Positions 1 to 18,332 are shown, counted from the first letter of the stretch. The stretch: 64,000 nucleotides of DNA from Bacteroidia bacterium (GCA_044239605.1 JBIIBC010000002.1:135441-199440); one strand, 5' to 3'. Translations and numbers: made by a program. Notes: generated from the sequence alone by a model not told the origin.

Positions 1-24
1 CCCAATATCATCAATAGTGCAAAT

Positions 25-3000
25 ATGGAAATTGTAGAAAAATATACTCCTGTAAATAAAATAAGAATTGTAACCGCTGCTGCTTTGTTCGATGGACATG
101 ATGCTGCCATAAACATTATGCGCAGAATTATCCAATCAACTGGTGCTGAGGTAATACATTTAGGACACGACAGAAGTGCGGAAGAAGTAGTAGATACTGC
201 CATTCAGGAAGATGCCAATGCAATAGCCATGACTAGTTACCAAGGTGGACACGTGGAGTATTTTAAGTTTATGCACGATTTACTGCAAGAAAAAGGTTGC
301 GGACATATAAAAATATTTGGAGGTGGCGGAGGTGTAATTTTACCTACCGAAATTGCTGAACTTCATGCTTACGGAATTTCAAGAATTTACTCTCCTGATG
401 ATGGGCGTGCTATGGGATTGCAAGGCATGATTAACGATATGCTTCAGCAATCTGATTTTGCCACTGGCGCAAATTTACTAGCCGATGCAAAAGAAATTAA
501 CCAAAAAGTAAAAGAACAAGATTATAAATCGATTGCTAAATTAATCTCCGCAGCCGAAAATTTCCCTGACGAATTTCACAAGGTATTCAACGTAGAGACG
601 TTGCATGCAACGTCTGTTCAAACCCCAATTCTTGGTATTACCGGAACAGGTGGTGCAGGAAAATCATCATTGGTAGATGAATTGGTGCGTAGGTTTTTGA
701 TGGATTTTGAAGATAAAAGCATTGCAATTATTTCTGTTGACCCTAGTAAACGTAAAACTGGTGGTGCATTGTTAGGCGATAGAATTAGAATGAACGCAAT
801 CAAAAATCCTCGTGTTTATATGCGTTCATTGGCTACTCGTCAAAGTAATTTGGCGTTATCAAAATATGTAAAAGAAGCCATTGATGTAATCAAAGCTGCA
901 CAATTTGATTTGATTATTTTAGAAACTTCGGGCATTGGCCAAAGCGATACTGAAATAATTGAACACAGCGATATGAGTTTGTATGTAATGACACCTGAAT
1001 ATGGTGCTGCTACACAACTTGAAAAAATTGATATGCTTGATTTTGCCGACATCATTGCATTAAATAAATTTGATAAAAAAGGTTCGTTAGACGCATTGAG
1101 AGATGTAAAAAAACAATACCAACGAAACCATCAGTTGTTTGATAAAAACCCTGATGATATGCCTGTTTTTGGTACTATTGCTTCGCAGTTTAACGACCCC
1201 GGAATGAATAGATTGTATAAATCTATCATGAATAAATTGGTGGAGAAAACGGGTGCTAATTTGAAATCAGATTACCACATCAGCGAGGAAATGAGTGAAA
1301 AGATTTACATCATTCCGCCTGCAAGAAACCGTTACTTATCTGAAATTTCAGAGAACAACCGTAACTATGATAAATGGGTTGCTAAACAATCTGAAATTGC
1401 TGATAAATTATTTGGTTTAAAATCATCAATCGAAACCATTGCGGCCTCTAAAATGGATAATAAAGACCGTTTATTAAAAGGTTTAGAAGAAGCATATCAA
1501 ACAGTAAACTTAGATTTAGATCCTCGTAATAAAATATTGCTTGAAACTTGGAGCGAAAAAATTGCTCAATACCAAAACGAGTTTTATATTTTTAAAGTGC
1601 GTGATAAAGAAATCAAAATTAAAACACATTCTGAATCCTTATCGCATTTGCAAATACCAAAAGTTGCTGTACCTAAATTTAAAGGTTGGGGCGATATTTT
1701 GCGTTGGTCGTTGCAAGAAAATTTCCCTGGCGAATTTCCATACACTGCGGGTATTTATCCGTTTAAGCGAGAAGGCGAAGACCCAACTAGAATGTTTGCC
1801 GGTGAAGGCGGACCAGAAAGAACCAACAAACGTTTTCATTATGTGAGTAAAGGCATGCCAGCAAAACGTTTAAGTACTGCCTTTGATTCGGTTACTTTAT
1901 ACGGACAAGACCCTGACCACAGACCAGATATTTATGGAAAAGTAGGTAATTCAGGTGTGAGTGTTTGGAGTTTAGATGCAGCTAAAAAATTGTATTCAGG
2001 CTTTAATCTTGCTGACCCTAAAACTTCGGTATCCATGACCATTAATGGGCCTGCGGCAATTATTTGTGCATTTTTCATGAATGCTGCCATTGATCAACAA
2101 TGCGAGATTTACATCAGACAAAATGGTTTGGAAGCTGAAGTAAATGAAAAATTAGAAGCCATTTTTAAAGCAAGAGGAACAGCAAGACCAACTTATAACG
2201 AAGAAATTCCAGAAGGAAATGATGGCCTAGGTTTAATGCTTTTAGGCGTTACAGGCGATATGGTTTTGCCAGCCGATGTATATCAAAAAATTAAGGTAGA
2301 AACTTTAAAACAAGTTCGCGGAACGGTTCAAGCTGATATTTTAAAAGAAGACCAAGCACAAAATACTTGTATATTCTCAACCGAGTTCTCATTACGCGTA
2401 ATGGGCGATGTACAGCAATATTTTATCAATAATGCAGTGCGTAATTTTTATTCGGTTTCTATAAGTGGATACCACATTGCCGAGGCAGGTGCAAACCCAA
2501 TTACGCAATTGGCTTTAACGCTTTCAAACGGATTTACTTTTGTAGAATATTACCTAAGCCGTGGAATGAATATTGATGATTTTGCGCCAAATCTTTCATT
2601 CTTCTTTAGTAATGGAATTGACCCTGAATATTCAGTAATTGGAAGGGTAAGTCGTAGAATTTGGGCCAAAGCCATGAAGTTAAAATATGGTGGAAACGAA
2701 CGCAGCCAAATGATGAAATACCATATTCAAACAAGTGGTAGAAGTTTGCATGCGCAAGAAATTGACTTTAACGATATTCGTACAACCTTACAAGCACTTT
2801 ACGCCATTTACGACAACTGTAATTCGTTACACACCAATGCGTATGATGAAGCCATCACAACGCCAACGGAAGAATCTGTGCGTAGGGCAATGGCTATTCA
2901 GTTAATCATTAACCGTGAGTTAGGTTTGGCTAAAAACGAGAATCCTTTGCAAGGTTCGTTTATCATTGAAGAATTAACTGATTTGGTAGAAGAAGCTGTA

Positions 3001-3417
3001 TTGGCTGAGTTTGATAAAATTAACGAGCGTGGTGGTGTGTTAGGTGCCATGGAAACCATGTACCAACGCAATAAAATACAAGAAGAAAGTATGTATTACG
3101 AAATGTTAAAACATACGGGCGAATATCCAATTATTGGGGTAAATACTTTTTTAAGTTCAAAAGGTTCACCAACAGTTATTCCGCAAGAAGTAATTCGTTC
3201 AACCACTGAAGAGAAAGAATTCCAAATAACAATGTTGAATCAATTAAAGCAAAGCAACGAAGAAAAAGGAAAAGAAATGTTGGCTAAAATTCAACAAGTA
3301 GCAATCCATAACGGAAACATATTTGAAGCCTTAATGGAAACAGTAAAATACTGCTCATTAGGACAAATTACCAACGCCTTATTTGAAGTAGGCGGGCAGT
3401 ACAGAAGGAATATGTAA
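25..3417 (+). CDS. icmF: Fused isobutyryl-CoA mutase IcmF: B12-binding domain, MeaB-like G-protein and mutase barrel in one chain
   Basis: N-terminal B12-binding region ([11 protein letters not shown]...HLGHD). Central MeaB/ArgK P-loop [13 protein letters not shown]-terminal mutase substrate-barrel motifs ([22 protein letters not shown]). The 1130-aa length fits fused IcmF. Confidence 0.85.
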
Positions 3418-3418
3418 G
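3331..3418 (+). repeat. Direct repeat copy 1 (88 bp): the in-frame 3' end of icmF, attL-like
   Basis: Matches 5607..5694. The first 44 nt are identical. The remaining differences are 8 substitutions, all synonymous for the IcmF C-terminus [27 protein letters not shown]. Confidence 0.8.
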
Positions 3419-3432
3419 CGGAGATTTCGATA

Positions 3433-5559
3433 TTGTCCCAAATGAGTATGACTTATAGAATACTTGAAATCAAAGAATTATTAGATGTAAAAACTATGAA
3501 AAGAAATTTAAAGTTAAAAAAAGCAATATTTATTGTTTTTATAATATACGCTGATATAGTATTTTCTCAAAATTACATTTTACCAAAAACATTGGTAATT
3601 GAAAAAAACAATTTATCTCAGAAACATATCAAAGAACAGTTAGTTCTTTTTAAAAACAATAATGAATTTAAAACTGAGGATTATTTTAAAATAGAAAATA
3701 CAATTTATAATTGTAACTTATTAGTAAATGAAAAATTAAAACATTGTGATTTAGAGTTTGAAAATTATAATAATAAAAAGAAGGATTTAATTAGATACGG
3801 GGATATTAAAAAATTAAAAGAACAAATTTTAGAACTTGAAAAAAGCAAGGAGAAAATCAAGATTCAATTAGACAATGAACTTGAAAATGTAAATATTAAA
3901 GGCCTTTTTTTATTTTTTGTTCAAGGGATGAATCCATATGAAAAACCCTCTGATCCAGAGATAAACTCAATTGCAATAAGAGAAATATCCCCTATTGCAA
4001 TTGAAGATTTGAATGGAATTTTTATTAATTCGTTTACGGAAATTTTTAAAAGCGAAAAAAGCAGTTTATATCAAAAATATATTATAGCTAAAGTTAGTGG
4101 AGTACTAAAAATTGAGGAAGTTAGGTTTAGTCAATTTGTAAATAAATTTTCTGGTTTTTTTATTATTGTAAAATGTAATGTTTCTCCATTAAAATCAAAC
4201 ATAATTACATCAAATAAAATTTATAATAATTTGCAAAAAAAGTATACAGTTGTTAATTTGTTGAAATGTGATTCAATTTATGAAAAAATAAGTATGTTTG
4301 ATTTGTCAGATAATGATATTTCAATAATAAACTCATACATTAAGAGTAATTTAGAAATTATTAATCACGAAAATTTGATATCAAAAGAAGATCAGAAAAG
4401 AATAATTAGATATACAAATCAAAAATTAGAGGAAATTGAAGAGGAAATATTATTACTTCAAAAGAAATTAGATTTTAAAATATTTAATATAAAACAAATT
4501 ATTAATACTAATTCTGAAATAAAATATAGTTTAAATAATATAGAAGATGCTATTGAGAATACTCTTAAATTTTTTAACATAAAATTAAAAGAAAATAGAC
4601 TTGAATATTATTCAATAAAGGAGAATGAACTTGTTTCAGTTTATGATGTAAAAATAACTAGTCATAACGATTTTAATGACGATATTTCTAATCAAACATT
4701 AGAAATTTTAGAAAATATAAAAGAAAAATATTCTTTTGTTGAAGAATATTTAAAAGAGCAAGTGATGTATAATAGTGAAATGACACTTAATAACGAGGGA
4801 CTAACAAAGAAGAAATATCGTGAAATTGAGAAAATTTGGCTTTATATTATACCGGATAATGGAGTATATAGGATAACAGTAGTAGCGAAATTTAATTTTA
4901 TAGCAAAATTAAAAATTACAGATAAAGATAAGTTTAATTTAATTTGTAGTAAAGAGTCATTTGTTAAAAATGATTTAATTGGACTAACAGAAGGTTTAAT
5001 AAGCTTAAGTTATAATTTACAAAATATTGAAGATGAAATTACTTCAAGTTATTTAGATGAGATTCCGAGAGGTGATTATTATATAAAAAGCGATTATCGT
5101 GATAAAAAATCATTTCGAAAAGTTATAAATGTAACCTTCAATAAAAACAGCTTACTGCGAGTTCAGTCAGTGAAAGACTCAAACTCAAATTCACAAACAA
5201 CAGAATTAACCCGAATAATTTTCTCAAATGTATTATATGGTTTAAATTCATTTGATACTTTACAATATTACAAAAGTTGTAATATTTCTGAACAAACTCA
5301 AAATTTTAAGTTTATATTCAATAATATAGAAATCTTGGAACCTTTCGAAAAGATTGCTGTAGGTCACATTTATGATTTATTATTTAATGTAGTTTATTCT
5401 AATGAATTGTTAGATTCAACTAAAAATAACATAAAGTTTTGCCAAAGCAATCAAAGCATTAAAGAAAATTTAGTAGATAAAATTAATAAATTTGGATCTA
5501 TTTATGATAAAGAAAAATTCAACAATTGTGTTAATAAAGTTTTAGGAAAATATAATTAA
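3433..5559 (+). CDS. Hypothetical secreted, Asn/Lys/Ile/Glu-rich coiled-coil protein. Probable true start is ATG at 3496 (signal peptide MKRNLKLKKAIFIVFIIYADIVFSQ). Cargo of the insertion in the icmF 3' end.
   Basis: Long ORF with AT content far above neighbouring icmF. Signal-peptide-like N-terminus after an internal Met. No recognisable catalytic motifs. Bounded by 88-bp direct repeats. Confidence 0.55.
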   Translation: MSQMSMTYRILEIKELLDVKTMKRNLKLKKAIFIVFIIYADIVFSQNYILPKTLVIEKNNLSQKHIKEQLVLFKNNNEFKTEDYFKIENTIYNCNLLVNEKLKHCDLEFENYNNKKKDLIRYGDIKKLKEQILELEKSKEKIKIQLDNELENVNIKGLFLFFVQGMNPYEKPSDPEINSIAIREISPIAIEDLNGIFINSFTEIFKSEKSSLYQKYIIAKVSGVLKIEEVRFSQFVNKFSGFFIIVKCNVSPLKSNIITSNKIYNNLQKKYTVVNLLKCDSIYEKISMFDLSDNDISIINSYIKSNLEIINHENLISKEDQKRIIRYTNQKLEEIEEEILLLQKKLDFKIFNIKQIINTNSEIKYSLNNIEDAIENTLKFFNIKLKENRLEYYSIKENELVSVYDVKITSHNDFNDDISNQTLEILENIKEKYSFVEEYLKEQVMYNSEMTLNNEGLTKKKYREIEKIWLYIIPDNGVYRITVVAKFNFIAKLKITDKDKFNLICSKESFVKNDLIGLTEGLISLSYNLQNIEDEITSSYLDEIPRGDYYIKSDYRDKKSFRKVINVTFNKNSLLRVQSVKDSNSNSQTTELTRIIFSNVLYGLNSFDTLQYYKSCNISEQTQNFKFIFNNIEILEPFEKIAVGHIYDLLFNVVYSNELLDSTKNNIKFCQSNQSIKENLVDKINKFGSIYDKEKFNNCVNKVLGKYN

Positions 5560-5606
5560 TTCAAACTTTTTATTTTAACAAATATAATATTTGTAATCAT
5601 TAATGT

Positions 5607-5694
5607 TTAATGGAAACAGTAAAATACTGCTCATTAGGACAAATTACCAATGCCTTATTTGAAGTTGGTGGACAGTATAGAAGAAACATGTAAG
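5607..5694 (+). repeat. Direct repeat copy 2 (88 bp): displaced, untranslated duplicate of the icmF 3' end, attR-like
   Basis: Encodes the same 27 aa plus stop as 3337..3417 using different synonymous codons. Followed by the hairpin at 5780..5807 that looks like the original icmF terminator. Confidence 0.8.
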
Positions 5695-5779
5695 GATTTG
5701 TGATTTTTGAATGATGCTTTTTGAATGATGGTTGCGGAGCTTGTCGAGGCATGAATGATTTTCGAACAGATGAGAAGGT

Positions 5780-5807
5780 GTAGAGACGTTTAATTAAACG
5801 TCTCTAC
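5780..5807 (+). terminator. Perfect 12-bp-stem hairpin (gtagagacgttt-aatt-aaacgtctctac), probable ancestral icmF terminator
   Basis: Perfect inverted repeat seen directly, about 85 bp after repeat copy 2. It lacks a strong T-tract, so function as a terminator is inferred. Confidence 0.45.
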
Positions 5808-5943
5808 AGAAGCAGAATCAATCAAATTTTGAATGGCAACCTCGATTTTGCTAAAATAATATTGAAATGAATTTATTGGAAATGTATTAGCCATTACAAC
5901 AATAAAAATTTTCTATTATTATTGAATTGTGATTTAAAAAATT

Positions 5944-6428: not shown

Positions 6429-6875
6429 TTACCTTCTCCTGGTATCACAAACTTGAATAATTTTCCAGTTTCCGTTTTCATAAAATAGTTGAAAAGCATC
6501 TACTCCTTTATGCGAGAATTTACCATTTACATAAAATTCATAATCAGCCCAAACACTTGCCATGGGGTAATCTACTTTTATATCAAATTGAGTAATGCGT
6601 TCTTCTATTTGTAAGTTACGTTTTTTTATAGTTAACACTTGTAGTAAAAAACTATCTACAGATTCGTTTTCAAGCGCAGTAATATTTGTTTTATTGTTTA
6701 AAAGGGCAGTTTGAAATCTTGCAGTTTTATGCAAACATTTGTTAATTATACTGGTATCGCTTTTTTGCATTCCTTCAAAAAATAACAAAATGGTTTCTTT
6801 AATGTTGGTTTTGTATGTTTGTGTAAAACCCGAATAAGGAACTACAAATAATAAAAGTACCCAAAAATTTCTCAT
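6429..6875 (-). CDS. Secreted NTF2-like/SnoaL-like (DUF4440-like) protein
   Basis: Signal peptide MRNFWVLLLFVVPYSGFTQ. Short alpha+beta cone-like C-terminus (YEFYVNGKFSHKGVDAFQLFYENGNWKI). Confidence 0.35.
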   Translation of the reverse strand: MRNFWVLLLFVVPYSGFTQTYKTNIKETILLFFEGMQKSDTSIINKCLHKTARFQTALLNNKTNITALENESVDSFLLQVLTIKKRNLQIEERITQFDIKVDYPMASVWADYEFYVNGKFSHKGVDAFQLFYENGNWKIIQVCDTRRR

Positions 6876-7004
6876 AATTTTTAAAATTAAATTTTTTCAA
6901 TAATAGATAAAACCAGAAATTATAAATCATTGCATATATTGAGTGGCGTCATGTTTTATAAAAATCAAAAAAATCAATTTGCACCTTAATAAAATACCTG
7001 TATT

Positions 7005-10395: not shown

Positions 10396-11145
10396 TGATT
10401 CGCCAGAATCACGCAATTCAATTAAGGCATCAATTCCAATTTCAATATGTCGTTTTACATATTGAGCAGTAACTGCACTATCGCTTTTTGATGTTTTTAC
10501 ACCATCAGGTGTCATTGGGTTATCACTAACCAAAAGTAAAGCTCCTTTGGGTATGCTATTCACGAAACCTACAATAAAAATAGTAGCAGTTTCCATATCA
10601 ATAGCCATGGCCCTAGTTTTCTTTAGGTAATCCTTAAATTCATCATCATGCTCCCAAACCCTACGGTTAGTAGTATAAACAGTTCCTGTCCAATAGTCAA
10701 CATCATGTTTAACAATGGTGGTAGATACCGCTTTTTGCATTCTAAATGAAGGTAAAGCAGGTATTTCAGGCATTATATAATCGTTACTTGTGCCTTCGCC
10801 TCTTATTGCAGCAATGGGTAAAATTAAATCGCCTAGTTTAGTTATCTTTTTTAAGCCTCCACATTTACCTAAAAACAAAACAGCTTTTGGAGTGATGGCC
10901 GATAGTAAATCCATGATGGTAGCTGCCATTGCACTTCCCATTCCAAAGTTAATAATGGTGATATTCTCAGCTGTAGCCGACTGCATAGGCTTGTCGGTAC
11001 CCATAATATTTACATTAAATTTTTGTGCGAAAATTTCAACATAGTTAAAAAAATTGGTAAGTAGAATGTATTCACCAAATTTATCAAGCTCTACGCCTGT
11101 ATAGCGCGGAAGCCAATCATTTACAATATCTTTTTTAGTTTTCAT
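10372..11145 (-). CDS. amn: Short-form AMP nucleosidase / PNP_UDP_1 family nucleoside phosphorylase
   Basis: PNP_UDP_1-like motifs (GKCGGL, AIDMETATI, LLLVSDNPMTPDG). 257 aa. Confidence 0.55.
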   Translation of the reverse strand: MKTKKDIVNDWLPRYTGVELDKFGEYILLTNFFNYVEIFAQKFNVNIMGTDKPMQSATAENITIINFGMGSAMAATIMDLLSAITPKAVLFLGKCGGLKKITKLGDLILPIAAIRGEGTSNDYIMPEIPALPSFRMQKAVSTTIVKHDVDYWTGTVYTTNRRVWEHDDEFKDYLKKTRAMAIDMETATIFIVGFVNSIPKGALLLVSDNPMTPDGVKTSKSDSAVTAQYVKRHIEIGIDALIELRDSGESVKHLRFE

Positions 11146-11300
11146 TTAAACAATATTTTAATTTGCAATATTTAGCATTAATTATGCAAAAGCAATATTA
11201 AAAATTTATTTTTACCCAACCATAACCATATACCATCGTATTAAGGTAAAAAATAACTCATTATTTAATTGCCTAACGAAAATAAATTTACTTAACTTTA

Positions 11301-11879
11301 ATGAAAATAGAGCTAGATCAGCTTATAAGTTTATGTTTAAAACAAGATCGCAAGGCCGAAAGTGCTTTGTATAAATATTGTTTTACTAAACTTATGCCTA
11401 TTTGCCATAAGTATTATAAAAGTAAAGACGATACCTTAGCACAAATAAATAAAGCGTTTTTAAAAATATTGAATAATTTAAGCAGTTTTGATGGTAATAA
11501 ATCGTTTGATGCTTGGATAAAAACAATAATGGTAAATACTATTATTGATGAATTTAGGGTAAATAAAAAACGTAATGCCTTGTTTATAGATAACAACAAT
11601 GAACAAGTAGACCTTGATTTCCATCCATTTAATTTAAACGAGGCTGAAGCTAAGTTAACTGCTGCCGATATTCAAATTCATATTCAGCAGTTACCTGAAT
11701 CGAGTAAAATGGTATTTAACCTTTTTACAGTTGATGGTTATAACCACAAAGAAATTGGTGAAATGCTAGGAATAAATGAAGGAACAAGCAAATGGCATTT
11801 AAATAATGCCAGAAAAATATTAAAGAAAAAACTGATTGAAATGTTTCCTCAACTTAAAGAAAGGGAAAAACAAGCATGA
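11301..11879 (+). CDS. ECF-type RNA polymerase sigma-70 factor
   Basis: Region 2 (WIKTIMVNTIIDEFR) and region 4 helix-turn-helix (HKEIGEMLGINEGTSKWHLNNARKILKKKL). Confidence 0.85.
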   Translation: MKIELDQLISLCLKQDRKAESALYKYCFTKLMPICHKYYKSKDDTLAQINKAFLKILNNLSSFDGNKSFDAWIKTIMVNTIIDEFRVNKKRNALFIDNNNEQVDLDFHPFNLNEAEAKLTAADIQIHIQQLPESSKMVFNLFTVDGYNHKEIGEMLGINEGTSKWHLNNARKILKKKLIEMFPQLKEREKQA

Positions 11880-13084
11880 CAGATAACGAATTAGATAATT
11901 TAATTAAAAACAAACTCAATAACCAAACTTTTGAGTATGAAGATACTTATTGGCAGCAAGCCGAAAAGATGATTGATGCTCAGCGTTTTGAAAATAAAAA
12001 ATTGGTTTGGTATAAATCGGCATTTTATGTTGCTGTAGCTACCGTTTTTGCATTATTGGGATGGTTTTTAGTAGAAAATAATAAAATTACTTCTCCTAAA
12101 ACATCTTTAAATGGTAATAATAAAAATGCTCAAATGCCGCAAATTGAATTAAACAGTTCGGCTATATCTAGTCAACCTAAAGCATCTGAATCTAAACTGT
12201 CTGTTAACTCAAATAGTATTAATAATAAAGAAAATTCAATATTAGTTGAATCAAATAATAATACTAAAACTTTAAGAACAGCTAAAGATAAATTACAAAA
12301 CATTGAAACTTTTTTGGGTGAAGAATTATCAATTAAAAATGAAGCTATGACTACTGAAAATATTGTTATTAATAACGAAGTTATGGTGGATGTTTTGCAA
12401 GGTAAAAACGCACAAAAAATCAGCTTAAATTTATTAGCTCCATCTTTCGATTTTACTCAAATTGATTTTATTAAATCGCCAATTAACTATAAAAACAGTT
12501 CAAAATTAAACAGTTATTTTAACGCAAGTTTGGAAGCAGGAACCAATTCGTTTAATAATACATTTTCGACTAATTCATTTGGTTATTATGTTGGAGGTAG
12601 ATTGTATTTTGATATCGGTAAATTCTCGCTAAATACCAATTTGCATTACGAAAATATAAATCAAAATTTGGCTCCTCGTGAAATTATAAATAAAACTTAC
12701 GATTTTACATCAAACACCACCAAAACTTCTATTAAAAACCAATCTATTGATTATGCAATCATTGGGTTAAATGCTATGTACCCTGTATATAAAAACCATA
12801 GTATTGGCATGGGTTTTCAATATGTTCAATTAATTAAAACCAATGATTTGTTTACCACCCAAAATTTAGAAAACAATACCATCATAAATAAAAGTACCAA
12901 TAATTACAGCAATGGTATAAATAAATCTGATATTCAATTTACTTTAAATTACCAATATAGATTTGCCAAACATTTAGCTGTAAATGCTACCTACGTTTAT
13001 GGTCTAAATGATGTTTCAACCAATGAAACGGCTAATTATAAAAACAGAGGAGTTAAATTAGGTTTACAATACATTATAAAATAA
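11876..13084 (+). CDS. Putative anti-sigma factor-like membrane protein with C-terminal outer-membrane beta-barrel-like domain
   Basis: Start overlaps the sigma gene stop (ATGA). Short cytoplasmic N-terminus, one TM helix (AFYVAVATVFALLGWFLV), Ser/Asn-rich linker. Alternating-hydrophobic C-terminus ending YIIK. Confidence 0.45.
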   Translation: MTDNELDNLIKNKLNNQTFEYEDTYWQQAEKMIDAQRFENKKLVWYKSAFYVAVATVFALLGWFLVENNKITSPKTSLNGNNKNAQMPQIELNSSAISSQPKASESKLSVNSNSINNKENSILVESNNNTKTLRTAKDKLQNIETFLGEELSIKNEAMTTENIVINNEVMVDVLQGKNAQKISLNLLAPSFDFTQIDFIKSPINYKNSSKLNSYFNASLEAGTNSFNNTFSTNSFGYYVGGRLYFDIGKFSLNTNLHYENINQNLAPREIINKTYDFTSNTTKTSIKNQSIDYAIIGLNAMYPVYKNHSIGMGFQYVQLIKTNDLFTTQNLENNTIINKSTNNYSNGINKSDIQFTLNYQYRFAKHLAVNATYVYGLNDVSTNETANYKNRGVKLGLQYIIK

Positions 13085-14212: not shown

Positions 14213-14599
14213 TTACTTTTCATAAAACTCAATGGGTAAACCATCGGGGTCGGCTATGAAAGTAAATTTTTTATCAGTGAATTCATCTATTCTTATAGGT
14301 TCAATACTAATGTTTAGTGAATTCATTTTTAGAACTACCTCCTCAAAATTATCTACCTCGAAAGCCAAATGCCTGAGTCCTGTGGCTTCAGGCCTGCTAG
14401 GTCTTTTGGGCGGATTAGGAAACGAAAAAAGTTCAATTACATAATTTCCGTTTAAAGCCAAATCAAGCTTATAGGAATCTCGCTCTGCCCTGTAAGTTTC
14501 ATTCAAAATTTCTAAACCAATAACTGCTGTATAAAACTGCTTCGAAACAGCGTAATTACTACAAATAATAGCGATATGATGTATTTTATTAATAATCAA
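14213..14599 (-). CDS. VOC (glyoxalase/bleomycin resistance/dioxygenase) family protein
   Basis: HHIAIICSNYAVSKQFY...GLRHLAFEV motif pattern. 128 aa. Confidence 0.7.
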   Translation of the reverse strand: MIINKIHHIAIICSNYAVSKQFYTAVIGLEILNETYRAERDSYKLDLALNGNYVIELFSFPNPPKRPSRPEATGLRHLAFEVDNFEEVVLKMNSLNISIEPIRIDEFTDKKFTFIADPDGLPIEFYEK

Positions 14600-14605
14600 A
14601 TTATA

Positions 14606-15883
14606 CTACGTTTTTAACTTTTTCTTTTTAGCACTTGGGAACAATATATTATTTAAAATAAGTCTGTAACCTGGCGAGTTTGGATGAAGGTTTAAATCGG
14701 TTGGTGGTTCGCCAACCATATGCTGATAATCTTCAGGGTCATGTCCTCCATAAAAAGTCCAAGTACCTTTACCTAAACTACCATGTATATATTTTGCTTC
14801 TTTCAGTTGTTTACTTTCACCTAGTATCAATACATCACTTTTAATAAACTGTTTTCTGAAAGCAGTAGTTTGCCCCATAAAACCTTTAACTGTGCTGGTA
14901 TGGTTTTGGCATAACATAGTTGGTACTAAATCCCATTTTGCTGAAAATTCAAATAAAGAAAATACATCGTTTTCTTCATTTACTGGTCTAGTATCAGGTG
15001 TTGCGTCTATGTATGAATATTCGTACTCATAAGGATTCATTACTAAGTTAAAATCTTTAAACGCAATAGTTTTGCTAAAATCAAGTTTTGCATTAGCATC
15101 ATGGTCGGCAGGATCGCCATCAAAAATACTTTCGCAAATATCAATTCCATCGGCTGCCATGGCAATATCGTAGGTGTCTGTTGCGCTGCACATAGCAAAT
15201 AAAAATCCGCCACCTAAAGTAAAATCTCTAATTTTTTTTGCTACTGCTAATTTAAGTTCTGATACTTTTTTAAAACCATGTTTAGCTGCCATTGATTCAT
15301 TTTCTTTTACTTCAGCCTGATACCAAGCAGTGTTGGCAAACTGCGCATAAAACTTACCATATTGACCAGTAAAATCCTCGTGATGCAAGTGAAGCCAATC
15401 GTACTTTACTAATTTATCGCTCAATAATTCATCATCAAAAACAACTTCGTAAGGAATTTCTGCGTAAGTTAAAACCATGGTTACAGCATCATCCCAAGGT
15501 TGTTTGGTTTTAGGAGAATAAACAGCAATTTTAGGAGCTTTATAAAGTTTCACTAACTCCATATTAACATCGGGTTTGGCTATTTGTAATAATATTTCTG
15601 AAACTTGAGCTTCGCTAATAATTTCATAACTAATGCCTCTAATCTTTAATTCTCGTTCATAAACTTGGTCGTAACCAAACATAAAACTGCCTGCTTTATA
15701 GTTTAAAAGCCAATCCACTTCAATGTCTTTTTGTAAAATCCAAAATGCCAATCCGTAGGCTTTCAAATGGTTCTTTTGTCCTTCGTCCATTGGAATTAGT
15801 ATTCGGCCGGCAAAACTAGATAAAGAACAAAGTAAGAATAGTAAGATAAAAAGTTTACGCATGGTTGTTCTGTTAAAATTCAA
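14606..15883 (-). CDS. Hypothetical secreted protein
   Basis: Signal peptide MRKLFILLFLLCSLSSFA. No motif recognised. Overlaps the next gene by 11 bp, so probably an operon. Confidence 0.5.
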   Translation of the reverse strand: MNFNRTTMRKLFILLFLLCSLSSFAGRILIPMDEGQKNHLKAYGLAFWILQKDIEVDWLLNYKAGSFMFGYDQVYERELKIRGISYEIISEAQVSEILLQIAKPDVNMELVKLYKAPKIAVYSPKTKQPWDDAVTMVLTYAEIPYEVVFDDELLSDKLVKYDWLHLHHEDFTGQYGKFYAQFANTAWYQAEVKENESMAAKHGFKKVSELKLAVAKKIRDFTLGGGFLFAMCSATDTYDIAMAADGIDICESIFDGDPADHDANAKLDFSKTIAFKDFNLVMNPYEYEYSYIDATPDTRPVNEENDVFSLFEFSAKWDLVPTMLCQNHTSTVKGFMGQTTAFRKQFIKSDVLILGESKQLKEAKYIHGSLGKGTWTFYGGHDPEDYQHMVGEPPTDLNLHPNSPGYRLILNNILFPSAKKKKLKT

Positions 15884-16772: not shown

Positions 16773-18332
16773 ATGAAAAAAATTTTATTAGCAGTATTAT
16801 TATTAACTTCAATAAGCTACACAAAAGCTCAAACAAAAGACATGCCATGGCAAATTGGATTGGGTATTGGTATTTCAGAATATTCGGGCGATTTAGGCAA
16901 TGGTTTTTTTAAGTTTGACCTTACTCCACACAACGTGTCGAATAATGGTGGTGGCAAAACAGAAAACACACCAGGAATAGGTTATTTAACCATAACCAGG
17001 TATTTAAGTAACCAATTTGACATTTCGGCAAGAGGATATCTTGGAGAATGGGGATATTTTGACAAAGTAAACGTAATAGGTAGCGCTACAATAGGTAATT
17101 TTTACCGTCAAACTTTAGGATTTGAAGTTACCCCTCGTTGGAAGTTTTTAGAAAAGGATAATGCTATGTTTACTCCTTATGTTACTTTAGGTATAGGCGC
17201 AAGAAGAATAAACATGCCAAAAAACAGAATGGAAGATTTTGGGATTTTTGGTACAGACAAAGATGGTTTATATGAATTTACTGTTCCGGCTGGTTTAGGG
17301 GTAAATGTTAAATTAACTGAAAAATTTGGCATGAATATCCAATCAAATTACATGTGGACAAATAATGATAAAACAGAAGGCTTAGCTTTATACGAACAAT
17401 TAACATATGACCAAGCATGGTTCCATACTATTGGTGTAACCATGAATTTAGGTAAAATAATTGACACTGATGGTGATGGTGTTGGTGACAAAAGAGATAA
17501 ATGTCCAAATACACCAGCAGGTGATTTAGTAAACCCAACTACAGGTTGTTCAATTGACACCGATAAGGATGGAATAGCAGATAATAAAGATGCTTGTCCA
17601 TTAGTAGCTGGTGTTGTTAATTTTAAAGGCTGCCCTGATTCTGATAATGATGGAGTTCAGGATAGTGAAGACAAATGTCCAACTGTTGCGGGTGTTGTTA
17701 AATTTAAAGGTTGCCCTGATTCTGATAATGATGGAACACAAGATAGCGAAGATGCATGTCCTACCGTTGCTGGAATAGCTAAATTTAATGGTTGCCCAGA
17801 CACTGATAATGACGGTATACAAGATAGTGAAGATGCATGTCCAGCTGTAGCAGGTATTGCAGCATTCAAAGGTTGTCCTGATACTGATAATGATGGCATT
17901 GAAGATAAATTAGACAATTGCCCTAAAGTAGCAGGTGTAGCCTCAAATAATGGTTGCCCAGAAATTAAAGCTTCAGTTAAACAATTATTTGAAAAAGCAT
18001 TACAAGGTGTTCAGTTTGAAACTGGAAAATCAGTAATAAAATCTAATTCATTTGCTATTTTAAACAACGTGGCTAAAATAATGGCAGAAAATCCAACTTA
18101 TAAACTATATATTTTAGGTCATACAGATAACGTTGGAGATGCGGCTAAAAACTTAAAATTATCTCAAGACAGAGCAGCGGCTGTTGAAAAATACTTAGAA
18201 AGTAAAGGTGTAAAAACTGAAAGAGTGCGTTCGGAAGGTTTTGGAGATACAAAACCTGCTTATGATAATGCTACAAAAGAAGGAAAAACTAAAAATCGCA
18301 GAGTTGAATTCAAAGTTGAATTTGAACAATAA
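16773..18332 (+). CDS. OmpA-family outer membrane protein with thrombospondin type-3 (TSP3) calcium-binding repeats
   Basis: Signal peptide. N-terminal beta-barrel region. Repeated D-x-D-x-D-G...D...C-P motifs. C-terminal OmpA domain (ILGHTDNVGDAAKNLKLSQDRAAAV...NRRVEF). Confidence 0.85.
   Translation: MKKILLAVLLLTSISYTKAQTKDMPWQIGLGIGISEYSGDLGNGFFKFDLTPHNVSNNGGGKTENTPGIGYLTITRYLSNQFDISARGYLGEWGYFDKVNVIGSATIGNFYRQTLGFEVTPRWKFLEKDNAMFTPYVTLGIGARRINMPKNRMEDFGIFGTDKDGLYEFTVPAGLGVNVKLTEKFGMNIQSNYMWTNNDKTEGLALYEQLTYDQAWFHTIGVTMNLGKIIDTDGDGVGDKRDKCPNTPAGDLVNPTTGCSIDTDKDGIADNKDACPLVAGVVNFKGCPDSDNDGVQDSEDKCPTVAGVVKFKGCPDSDNDGTQDSEDACPTVAGIAKFNGCPDTDNDGIQDSEDACPAVAGIAAFKGCPDTDNDGIEDKLDNCPKVAGVASNNGCPEIKASVKQLFEKALQGVQFETGKSVIKSNSFAILNNVAKIMAENPTYKLYILGHTDNVGDAAKNLKLSQDRAAAVEKYLESKGVKTERVRSEGFGDTKPAYDNATKEGKTKNRRVEFKVEFEQ
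17598..17921 (+). repeat. Four tandem 81-bp (27-aa) repeats encoding TSP3 motifs inside the OmpA gene
   Basis: Copies start at 17598, 17679, 17760 and 17841, with a partial fifth copy following. Protein repeat is AG(V/I)xKFKGCPD(S/T)DNDGxQDSED(K/A)CPxV. Confidence 0.8.

Follow-up and report, generated by a model that had tools for sequence, protein, structure and literature searches.

Elements such as e14 and phage 21 in icd, or ICESt1/3 and the integrase-less cis-mobilizable elements (CIMEs) at fda, restore the 3' end of the protein-coding gene that they target, and elements of the e14/icd and fda type are associated with direct repeats of the target 3' end, a diverged synonymous replacement of that end, tandem accretion, and integrase-less derivatives flanked by att sites. 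The Rhs 'C-terminal displacement' arrays of Enterobacteriaceae have been proposed to arise by homologous recombination, with a circle as the intermediate form (Jackson et al. 2009, PMC2935791). For the effector-immunity arrays of the T6SS (type VI secretion system) in V. cholerae, homology-facilitated illegitimate recombination with a conserved upstream anchor was proposed, and an explicit parallel was drawn to integrons without integrase (Kirchberger et al. 2017, PMC5361080). Arrays have also been described for the tycheposons and tRNA islands of Prochlorococcus (bioRxiv 10.1101/2020.12.28.424599). Both the restoration of a 3' end by an incoming element and recombinase-free displacement arrays are known. 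Here we report an analysis of the 3' end of icmF, the gene of a fused isobutyryl-CoA mutase, in a stretch of 64,000 nt from a Bacteroidia bacterium (GCA_044239605.1 JBIIBC010000002.1:135441-199440; hereafter, the window), where a single cargo gene is enclosed by two copies of the icmF end, and of the recurrence of additional icmF ends, termed remnants, behind intact icmF genes in other genomes. Judging from the literature that was searched, the repeated use of the icmF end in Bacteroidota, with single genes of diverse kinds as cargo, is a novel form of these known phenomena, and a literature search for icmF as an integration site returned nothing relevant.

The features of the locus are listed below, with reference to the closest relative of the window, a freshwater Bacteroidetes metagenome-assembled genome (MAG) with 92-95% nucleotide identity, whose icmF locus is designated L001. 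GC denotes the guanine plus cytosine content.

25..3417, + strand: icmF, fused isobutyryl-CoA mutase of 1,130 aa, assigned by Pfam; the anchor gene, with its 3' end as the docking site; 92% nucleotide identity with L001 over the whole length.
3331..3418, + strand: repeat copy 1, the active in-frame last 28 codons and stop, which probably arrived with the insert.
3331..3374, + strand: identical block of 44 nt with its partner at 5607-5650, the likely site of homologous exchange or conversion.
3419..5606, + strand: unique inserted DNA of 2,188 nt (total insertion of 2,276 nt with one repeat unit), GC 17-25%, absent from L001.
3496..5559, + strand: cargo gene of 687 aa, with an N-terminal signal-peptide-like segment (MKRNLKLKKAIFIVFIIYADIVFSQ) and an uncharacterised domain at residues 1-470.
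5607..5694, + strand: repeat copy 2, the untranslated, displaced resident icmF 3' end, with frame and stop intact and a flank collinear with L001.
5695..5772, + strand: native sequence 3' of icmF, which directly follows the icmF stop in L001.

The open reading frame (ORF) at 25-3417 contains B12-binding, MeaB GTPase, and MM_CoA_mutase domains according to Pfam; the gene name therefore refers to the fused isobutyryl-CoA mutase, not to the T6SS protein IcmF. Its end takes part in a direct repeat of 88 nt (3331-3418 and 5607-5694) with 92% identity between the copies, each of which encodes the same 28 codons and stop. The copies differ at seven sites, all of them at codon position 3 in the icmF frame and all synonymous (chance of all seven at position 3, ~5e-4), and the first 44 nt are free of any difference (3331-3374 against 5607-5650), so that all seven lie distal to this block (chance ~0.008). 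An earlier note, made from the sequence of the window alone, had described 44 identical nucleotides together with eight substitutions restricted to synonymous positions; the identical block and the synonymous-only pattern stand, and the count is corrected to seven. That note had also regarded the second copy as untranslated, in agreement with our finding that copy 2 lies outside every long ORF and that upstream of it the frame opens for one codon only. The identity of the proximal halves is a precondition for homologous exchange, not a result of the crossover position. A search for an attC-like fold in the repeat was negative, with both strands of both copies folding no better than shuffled sequences (z -1.0 to -1.3). 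Two other sources of such repeats were considered and rejected: a diversity-generating retroelement, because only two of the seven differing bases in the downstream copy are A and Pfam gave no reverse transcriptase domain, and a transposon target-site duplication, because the repeat is 88 nt long with 8% divergence at synonymous sites only and copy 2 is native. Neither a transposase nor terminal inverted repeats were found for the insert.

Comparison with the closest relative revealed the state of the locus without the insert. The L001 sequence aligns with window positions 1-3418 and then runs from its own icmF end straight into window positions 5607-5772, which are 94% identical to L001 10814-10979. 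This is the empty site that had been predicted for a related genome, with icmF continuing directly into an end and flank of the copy 2 type; this identifies the 2,276-bp segment as an insertion and copy 2, together with its flank, as the resident state. Neither L001 nor any of 160 icmF loci contains a match to the inserted DNA. Of the seven variable sites, five in L001 have the base of copy 2 and two that of copy 1, and the identity to L001 over 87 nt is 96.6% for copy 2, as compared with 93.1% for copy 1. By this measure, the in-frame end (copy 1) appears as the more foreign of the two, and the window is consistent with the earlier claim that the insert brought its own gene end. A Logan unitig from an independent assembly (L081) is 100% identical to window positions 3390-5636 and crosses both junctions, and on a separate 5.7-kb Joint Genome Institute (JGI) contig the cargo gene likewise comes after icmF; the structure is thus not an assembly artefact. 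It is close to certain that the window contains a real insertion with a displaced resident end, and taken by itself this single insertion is an ordinary strain-level indel.

The recurrence of the same arrangement was assessed in two sets of loci obtained by scanning with the IcmF C-terminus, namely 80 loci from species-representative genomes and 80 loci from metagenomes, in each of which we searched for extra copies of the locus's own icmF end. Remnants of the icmF 3' end were found downstream of an intact icmF in eight of 158 loci (the window, L002, L007, L062, L077, L114, L128, and L152), a frequency of ~5% that is rough, since each scan took 80 loci of more than 600 matches. When the same test was applied to ~1,100 other ORFs of at least 200 aa from the same loci, about two cases were obtained, one clear and one doubtful (Fisher p=1.9e-6). 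One further species with remnants (L162-169) came from context look-ups for a cassette protein. The following loci were among those found:

L002, MAG: one extra remnant.
L007, Hymenobacter terrenus, isolate: two extra remnants.
L062, MAG: one extra remnant.
L077, Flavobacteriales MAG: eight or nine extra remnants.

The remnants in L114, L128, and L152 came from the metagenome set. By icmF similarity, L077, L114, L152, and L162 form one clade, and the remnant-bearing loci therefore represent at least six lineages, in which the GC content of icmF ranges from ~37% to 61%. The clear case outside icmF was found in L092, where a 204-nt end of a minus-strand gene (17127-18128), read from its sequence as a putative SDR-family oxidoreductase, is duplicated at 14560-14763 and 17128-17331 with 92% identity, 2.4 kb apart; this insert contains an outer-membrane beta-barrel-like gene, a RAYT-like gene, and repeats resembling repetitive extragenic palindromic (REP) elements. 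Gene-end duplication is therefore not exclusive to icmF.

Each array unit consists of a remnant that ends at the icmF stop, followed by cargo. In L077, a single ORF begins 0-10 nt past the stop of each remnant, and the units are spaced by 296-1,270 nt. Toxin-antitoxin pairs, nucleases, and surface proteins are present among the array cargo; its recognisable members include DUF4160/DUF2442, ParE together with a partner encoded upstream of it, a pair with DUF2283, a 'transposase-like' PD-(D/E)XK nuclease, a restriction endonuclease (REase)-like protein, and DUF6000, and the remaining ones are small membrane or secreted proteins without a Pfam match. The cassette GC is lower than the host GC in L002, L007, L062, and the window. 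The DUF4160/DUF2442 pair has remnants on both sides in L077 and L162 and an upstream remnant only in L114; in L170-177, the pair occurs elsewhere without remnants, and only the two genes are homologous. With L128 left out of the count, since its alignment was shifted by one nucleotide, the active gene ends and the remnants were compared at three further loci:

L152, 1,065 nt: 110 differences, 87 of them at codon position 3; four amino-acid changes, no stops.
L062, 72 nt: two differences, both at position 3.
L002, 105 nt: 12 differences, ten of them at position 3.

The differences fall mostly at position 3, and the frames and stops of the remnants are intact. The synonymous-type signature, which had been noted for the window, is thus a general one, and both copies derive from functional icmF alleles. 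Two side observations concern the same loci. Inside icmF of L062 (3262-3587), two tandem units of 164 nt, partly palindromic and in frame, add proline- and glycine-rich repeats to the protein, and they look like an in-frame insertion of the REP or miniature inverted-repeat transposable element (MITE) type. In L162-L169 (6344-6739), from several Flavobacteriales MAGs, the icmF stop is followed by ~50 nt and then by a 346-nt icmF 3' fragment, which gene callers report as a 131-aa MM_CoA_mutase-like ORF; here, the displaced end is accompanied by hardly any cargo.

The cargo gene of the window occupies nearly the whole insert, which contains no gene debris, and the earlier description of the insert as encoding one secreted protein agrees with the single long ORF and its signal-peptide-like N-terminus. 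ATG 3496 is the best-supported start, because remote homologues align from there. The 705-aa gene call of the cargo (P0001) was found on two short contigs only, with the arrangement unchanged. With a GC of 21.7%, the cargo ORF is the lowest of the 41 ORFs in the window (mean 31.3%, z=-3.2), and icmF (36.9%) is among the highest, as expected from the earlier remark that the insert is far more AT-rich than icmF. The cargo protein has no Pfam match; in a word-indexed search of 5.8 billion proteins it matched itself only, and exact-sequence look-ups of IcmF and of the 687-aa cargo gave no match. An exhaustive HMMER search of 1.84 billion representatives retrieved 143 remote homologues with 20-31% identity, all to residues ~8-470. 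Ten of these were scanned by Pfam, and eight had Fib_succ_major or FGE-sulfatase-like C-termini, one had PEGA, and one had no match; cargo residues 1-470 define an uncharacterised family, whose scanned members mostly carry interchangeable C-terminal domains. An AlphaFold (AF2) model built from 60 homologues has a predicted local distance difference test (pLDDT) score of ~90 for residues 1-487 and predicts two repeats, each composed of a coiled-coil hairpin and an alpha/beta unit; a fold search of this model against the PDB gave nothing significant (best E=0.067). The cargo gene is thus not one for mobility; its product belongs to an uncharacterised family and is secreted or located at the surface.

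Candidate recombinases near icmF were sought by sequence motifs and Pfam summaries. Pfam gave no recombinase or transposase in the insert, as the earlier note had stated, or in the scanned neighbouring ORFs up to 24.8 kb (~21 kb downstream). Two of these neighbours lack any Pfam match, and the recognisable ones are ordinary chromosomal genes, encoding a histidine kinase, an ECF sigma factor, OmpA-type proteins, and type IX secretion substrates. A six-frame motif scan (HxLRH-type) found no tyrosine recombinase in the 64-kb window or near any array; over all loci it found one, in L014, at 7.8 kb from icmF and without a remnant there. Among the scanned array ORFs of L002, L007, L062, and one L077 cassette pair, Pfam detected no recombinase, and no recombinase family is among the 25 commonest families of the 137 ORFs located 3' of icmF in 80 loci, a summary of families matched by two or more ORFs, in which a single recombinase match could be hidden. 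A profile of the IcmF C-terminus run against 2.9 million viral contigs gave no confirmed mimic of the icmF end.

The boundaries of the remnants provided insights into the mode of recombination. Their left edges lie 73, 74, ~80, 88, 93-100, 105, 125, 177, ~220, 346, and 1,067 nt before the stop, a 15-fold range overall, and the lengths differ even inside single genomes. In L114, the active gene is 92-99% identical to L152/L077 in the gene body and 57-80% identical over the last ~190-315 nt; the switch between alleles lies ~190 nt before the stop, which is ~70 nt upstream of where the 125-nt remnant has its left edge, and 113 of the 125 remnant positions match the second copy of L152. The 346-nt remnant of L162 is nearer to the relatives than the active end beside it, which is the more foreign of the two. 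The variable lengths and the tracts in L114 and L162 fit a crossover in icmF homology with a variable second join, not one att core. The interpretation of the window repeats as attL/attR-like, with a crossover inside a fixed 44-bp core, does not fit best in view of duplicated pieces of 73-1,067 nt and of the foreign tract that begins upstream of the duplication in L114. In L077, a common left boundary and a 2-nt deletion are found in four remnants, and three of the deletion carriers also share a 20-nt hairpin insertion. These shared changes sit in the left halves, and the right halves keep the icmF coding sequence; thus, the left halves travel with the cassettes and never enter the active gene.

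We consider homology-driven gene-end displacement, without an element-encoded recombinase, to be the favoured explanation, with a probability of roughly 0.55. As to the recombination route and the mode of transfer, we infer that DNA from a related lineage would enter with the terminal portion of its own icmF and a cargo gene behind it, and would recombine with the resident icmF through sequence homology and the host machinery. The incoming end (copy 1) would then complete the gene, with the cargo directly behind the stop codon, and the last 88 nt of the resident gene (copy 2) would be shunted downstream, silent and still joined to their native flank. Such an outcome may be reached by a single crossover of a circle that contains an icmF-end fragment and cargo, as in the Rhs 'C-terminal displacement' model, or by an upstream crossover in icmF and a second join at or in the gene end, as in homology-facilitated illegitimate recombination; a variant of the latter would be a double crossover with a remnant as the right-hand arm. 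Repeated rounds would build arrays of remnant and cargo units, with the newest unit adjoining icmF. The earlier note had left a choice between a minimal or trans-mobilised island and a recombination plug-in from a related lineage, and the evidence lies nearer to the second option, the first being less favoured.

A number of observations weigh against gene-end displacement by homology. Most arrays come from MAGs or metagenome contigs, and L007 is the sole isolate among the array-bearing loci from the scans. The divergence between the window and L001 is even along icmF (~92% identity), so a foreign tract in the icmF of the window cannot be delimited; a donor genome for the cargo was not found among the 160 icmF loci or by protein searches, and the incoming fragment therefore cannot be reconstructed. 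For RecA-dependent exchange, a repeat of 88 nt with 44 identical positions offers little length; homology alone does not fully account for the strong preference for icmF, a large number of left boundaries fall close together, 73-125 nt before the stop, and the L077 pattern suits the circle model and a site-specific system equally. The last three points, together with the 44-nt identical block in the window repeats, speak for a minimal island mobilised in trans, similar to CIMEs or integron cassettes, where a recombinase encoded elsewhere or on a helper element would recognise the icmF 3' end and its cassette-borne mimic and insert circular cassettes. Such an island would account for the strong specificity for one gene end, for the single promoterless ORFs that abut the remnants of L077 in the fashion of integron cassettes, and for the common boundary and left-half indels of the L077 remnants, as for a cassette-borne site. 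We regard it as unlikely, although it deserves serious attention, because the remnants, with lengths of 73 to 1,067 nt, are not uniform even within genomes, the active gene of L114 becomes foreign already upstream of the duplicated segment, and the 346-nt remnant of L162 is accompanied by just ~50 nt of 'cargo'. Moreover, no tyrosine-recombinase motif occurs near the arrays or in the 64-kb window, no icmF-end mimic occurs among the viral contigs, conservation of the site across hosts with 31-61% GC is confined to the protein level, and the repeat lacks an attC-like fold (z about -1).

Repeats with a restored gene end are what integrase-bearing elements leave, as at icd (e14) and fda (ICESt), and the foreign composition of the insert would also suit a decayed remnant of a larger element of this kind, a prophage or an integrative and conjugative element (ICE) at the icmF 3' end, from which deletions spared one cargo gene. 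We find this improbable: in ~160 loci there is no integrase beside icmF, the only candidate being that of L014, 7.8 kb away and with no remnant, the site is present in no viral contig, the cargo ORF fills almost all of the insert without gene debris, and arrays of many tiny units, as in L077, are hard to derive by repeated decay. It is similarly doubtful that the window imported the ready-made arrangement from a close strain by a double crossover in an icmF arm and a downstream flank arm, and we give this small odds. Both flanks have 90-95% identity to L001, and the downstream locus is rich in indels, with a RAYT-like segment and a gene read as GNAT-type in L001 only, as such an import would allow; however, L001 is the sole strain with a different state for comparison, and the first formation of the duplication would be left unexplained. 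Import of this kind is a transfer route compatible with any origin model, and the duplication would then be older and formed elsewhere. Finally, repeats that share an identical block of 44 nt can mislead assemblers, and many of the related loci are from MAGs, which raises the question of a chimera of two strain variants joined at the shared icmF end. The unitig identical over both junctions, the separate JGI contig with icmF followed by the cargo gene, and the same architecture in the isolate genome L007 make a chimera extremely improbable.

The native flank downstream of the displaced end shows further differences between the window and L001. One more feature of the window belongs here:

5780..5807, no strand assigned: REP-like perfect palindrome of 28 nt, GTAGAGACG...CGTCTCTAC, not in the insert.

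This palindrome had been taken for a terminator hairpin. The perfect palindrome exists, but it has no T tail and was not scored as a terminator, and it is best described as a REP-like element unrelated to the insert. Exactly between window positions 5772 and 5780, L001 has an extra 1.5-kb segment (10980-12510) bracketed by REP-like hairpins of the same motif family, of which the window retains one hairpin only. As read from sequence, the segment carries a gene for a putative REP-associated (RAYT-like, IS200-type) transposase, and its small ORF looks TPR-like. A related palindrome, GTAGAGACGTTGCATGCAACGTCT, is located in frame inside icmF, before the MeaB domain, at window positions 592-615 and at 8075 in L001. 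Further downstream, an ORF of L001 (13560-14183), which probably encodes a GNAT-type acetyltransferase, is replaced by ~110 nt in the window (6828-6937), and the stretch 3' of icmF is in general rich in indels between the two. Just past the displaced icmF end, at window positions 5701-5728, there is a 14-nt tandem repeat (TGATTTTTGAATGA / TGCTTTTTGAATGA), which is also present in L001 and therefore belongs to the native flank. Diverged tandem repeats with a period of ~81 nt at window positions 17556-17962, within the OmpA-family ORF 16773-18332, are the thrombospondin type 3 repeats of that ORF.

With respect to significance, foreign genes may be captured and stacked without a recombinase when the end of a conserved gene is duplicated. 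If this is true, remnants could provide a simple sequence signature for hotspots of gene flow in genomes without recognisable mobile elements, among them many MAGs of uncultured aquatic and soil Bacteroidota. The icmF locus offers a concrete test site for the roles of short homology, illegitimate joining, and selection on the anchor gene in gene acquisition, and L001 and the window form a natural pair of empty and occupied sites. More tentatively, and as a possibility that we rate well below even odds, the icmF 3' end could be a phylum-wide docking site of Bacteroidota, in effect an integron without integrase, where the duplicated end of this ultra-conserved housekeeping gene would serve as portable homology for capturing, stacking, excising, and passing small cargo (toxin-antitoxin pairs, nuclease-like and surface proteins) between genera, with the gene regenerated each time; or else the arrays could have been left by a novel recombinase that acts in trans and is specific to this site.

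Comparison with the known systems places the icmF arrays between several of them. Integron arrays are likewise composed mostly of single promoterless ORFs at a repeated site, with promoter-proximal insertion and a cargo of toxin-antitoxin and unknown-function genes, whereas at icmF there is no intI and no attC hairpin, and a coding gene end whose length varies takes the place of the 'site'. Tycheposons resemble them in that repeated integration at a single conserved site displaces older elements inward and leaves partial target copies scattered through the island; they differ in that they target tRNA genes, carry tyrosine recombinases, and leave remnants of fixed att length. Elements of the e14/icd and fda type have a cognate integrase and a fixed att core, in contrast to icmF, where no integrase was found and the repeat length varies 15-fold. 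Of the properties of integrative elements, border repeats and an empty site were found at icmF, and an adjoining recombinase and a fixed core or boundary were not. Of the properties of displacement arrays, variable 3' fragments, a foreign active end (L114, L162), and inserts of differing composition were found.

The Rhs arrays share with icmF an intact gene followed by gene pieces of variable length and variable DNA of other GC, as well as the incoming piece taking the active position while the old piece is shunted downstream without a recombinase. In Rhs, however, what varies is the protein's own toxin C-terminus together with an immunity gene, whereas at icmF the conserved piece holds the stop codon of a housekeeping enzyme, the variable part comprises separate, unrelated genes, and the phylum is another one. 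Since the icmF repeat includes the stop codon, the protein is left as it was, and independent genes make up the variable part; icmF is a metabolic enzyme with an unchanged encoded C-terminus, and in this respect it is not the anchor of a polymorphic toxin. In the T6SS arrays, successive insertions similarly push earlier genes and a 3' fragment of the displaced gene downstream, and retained immunity genes give an obvious selective logic, which differs from icmF with its metabolic anchor and heterogeneous cargo of toxin-antitoxin pairs, nuclease-like proteins, and membrane or secreted proteins. Displacement arrays have been described at polymorphic toxin loci, where the exchange of the tip is the point; the same architecture at a housekeeping gene, with unrelated cargo and in six or more lineages of Bacteroidota, suggests a more general phenomenon.

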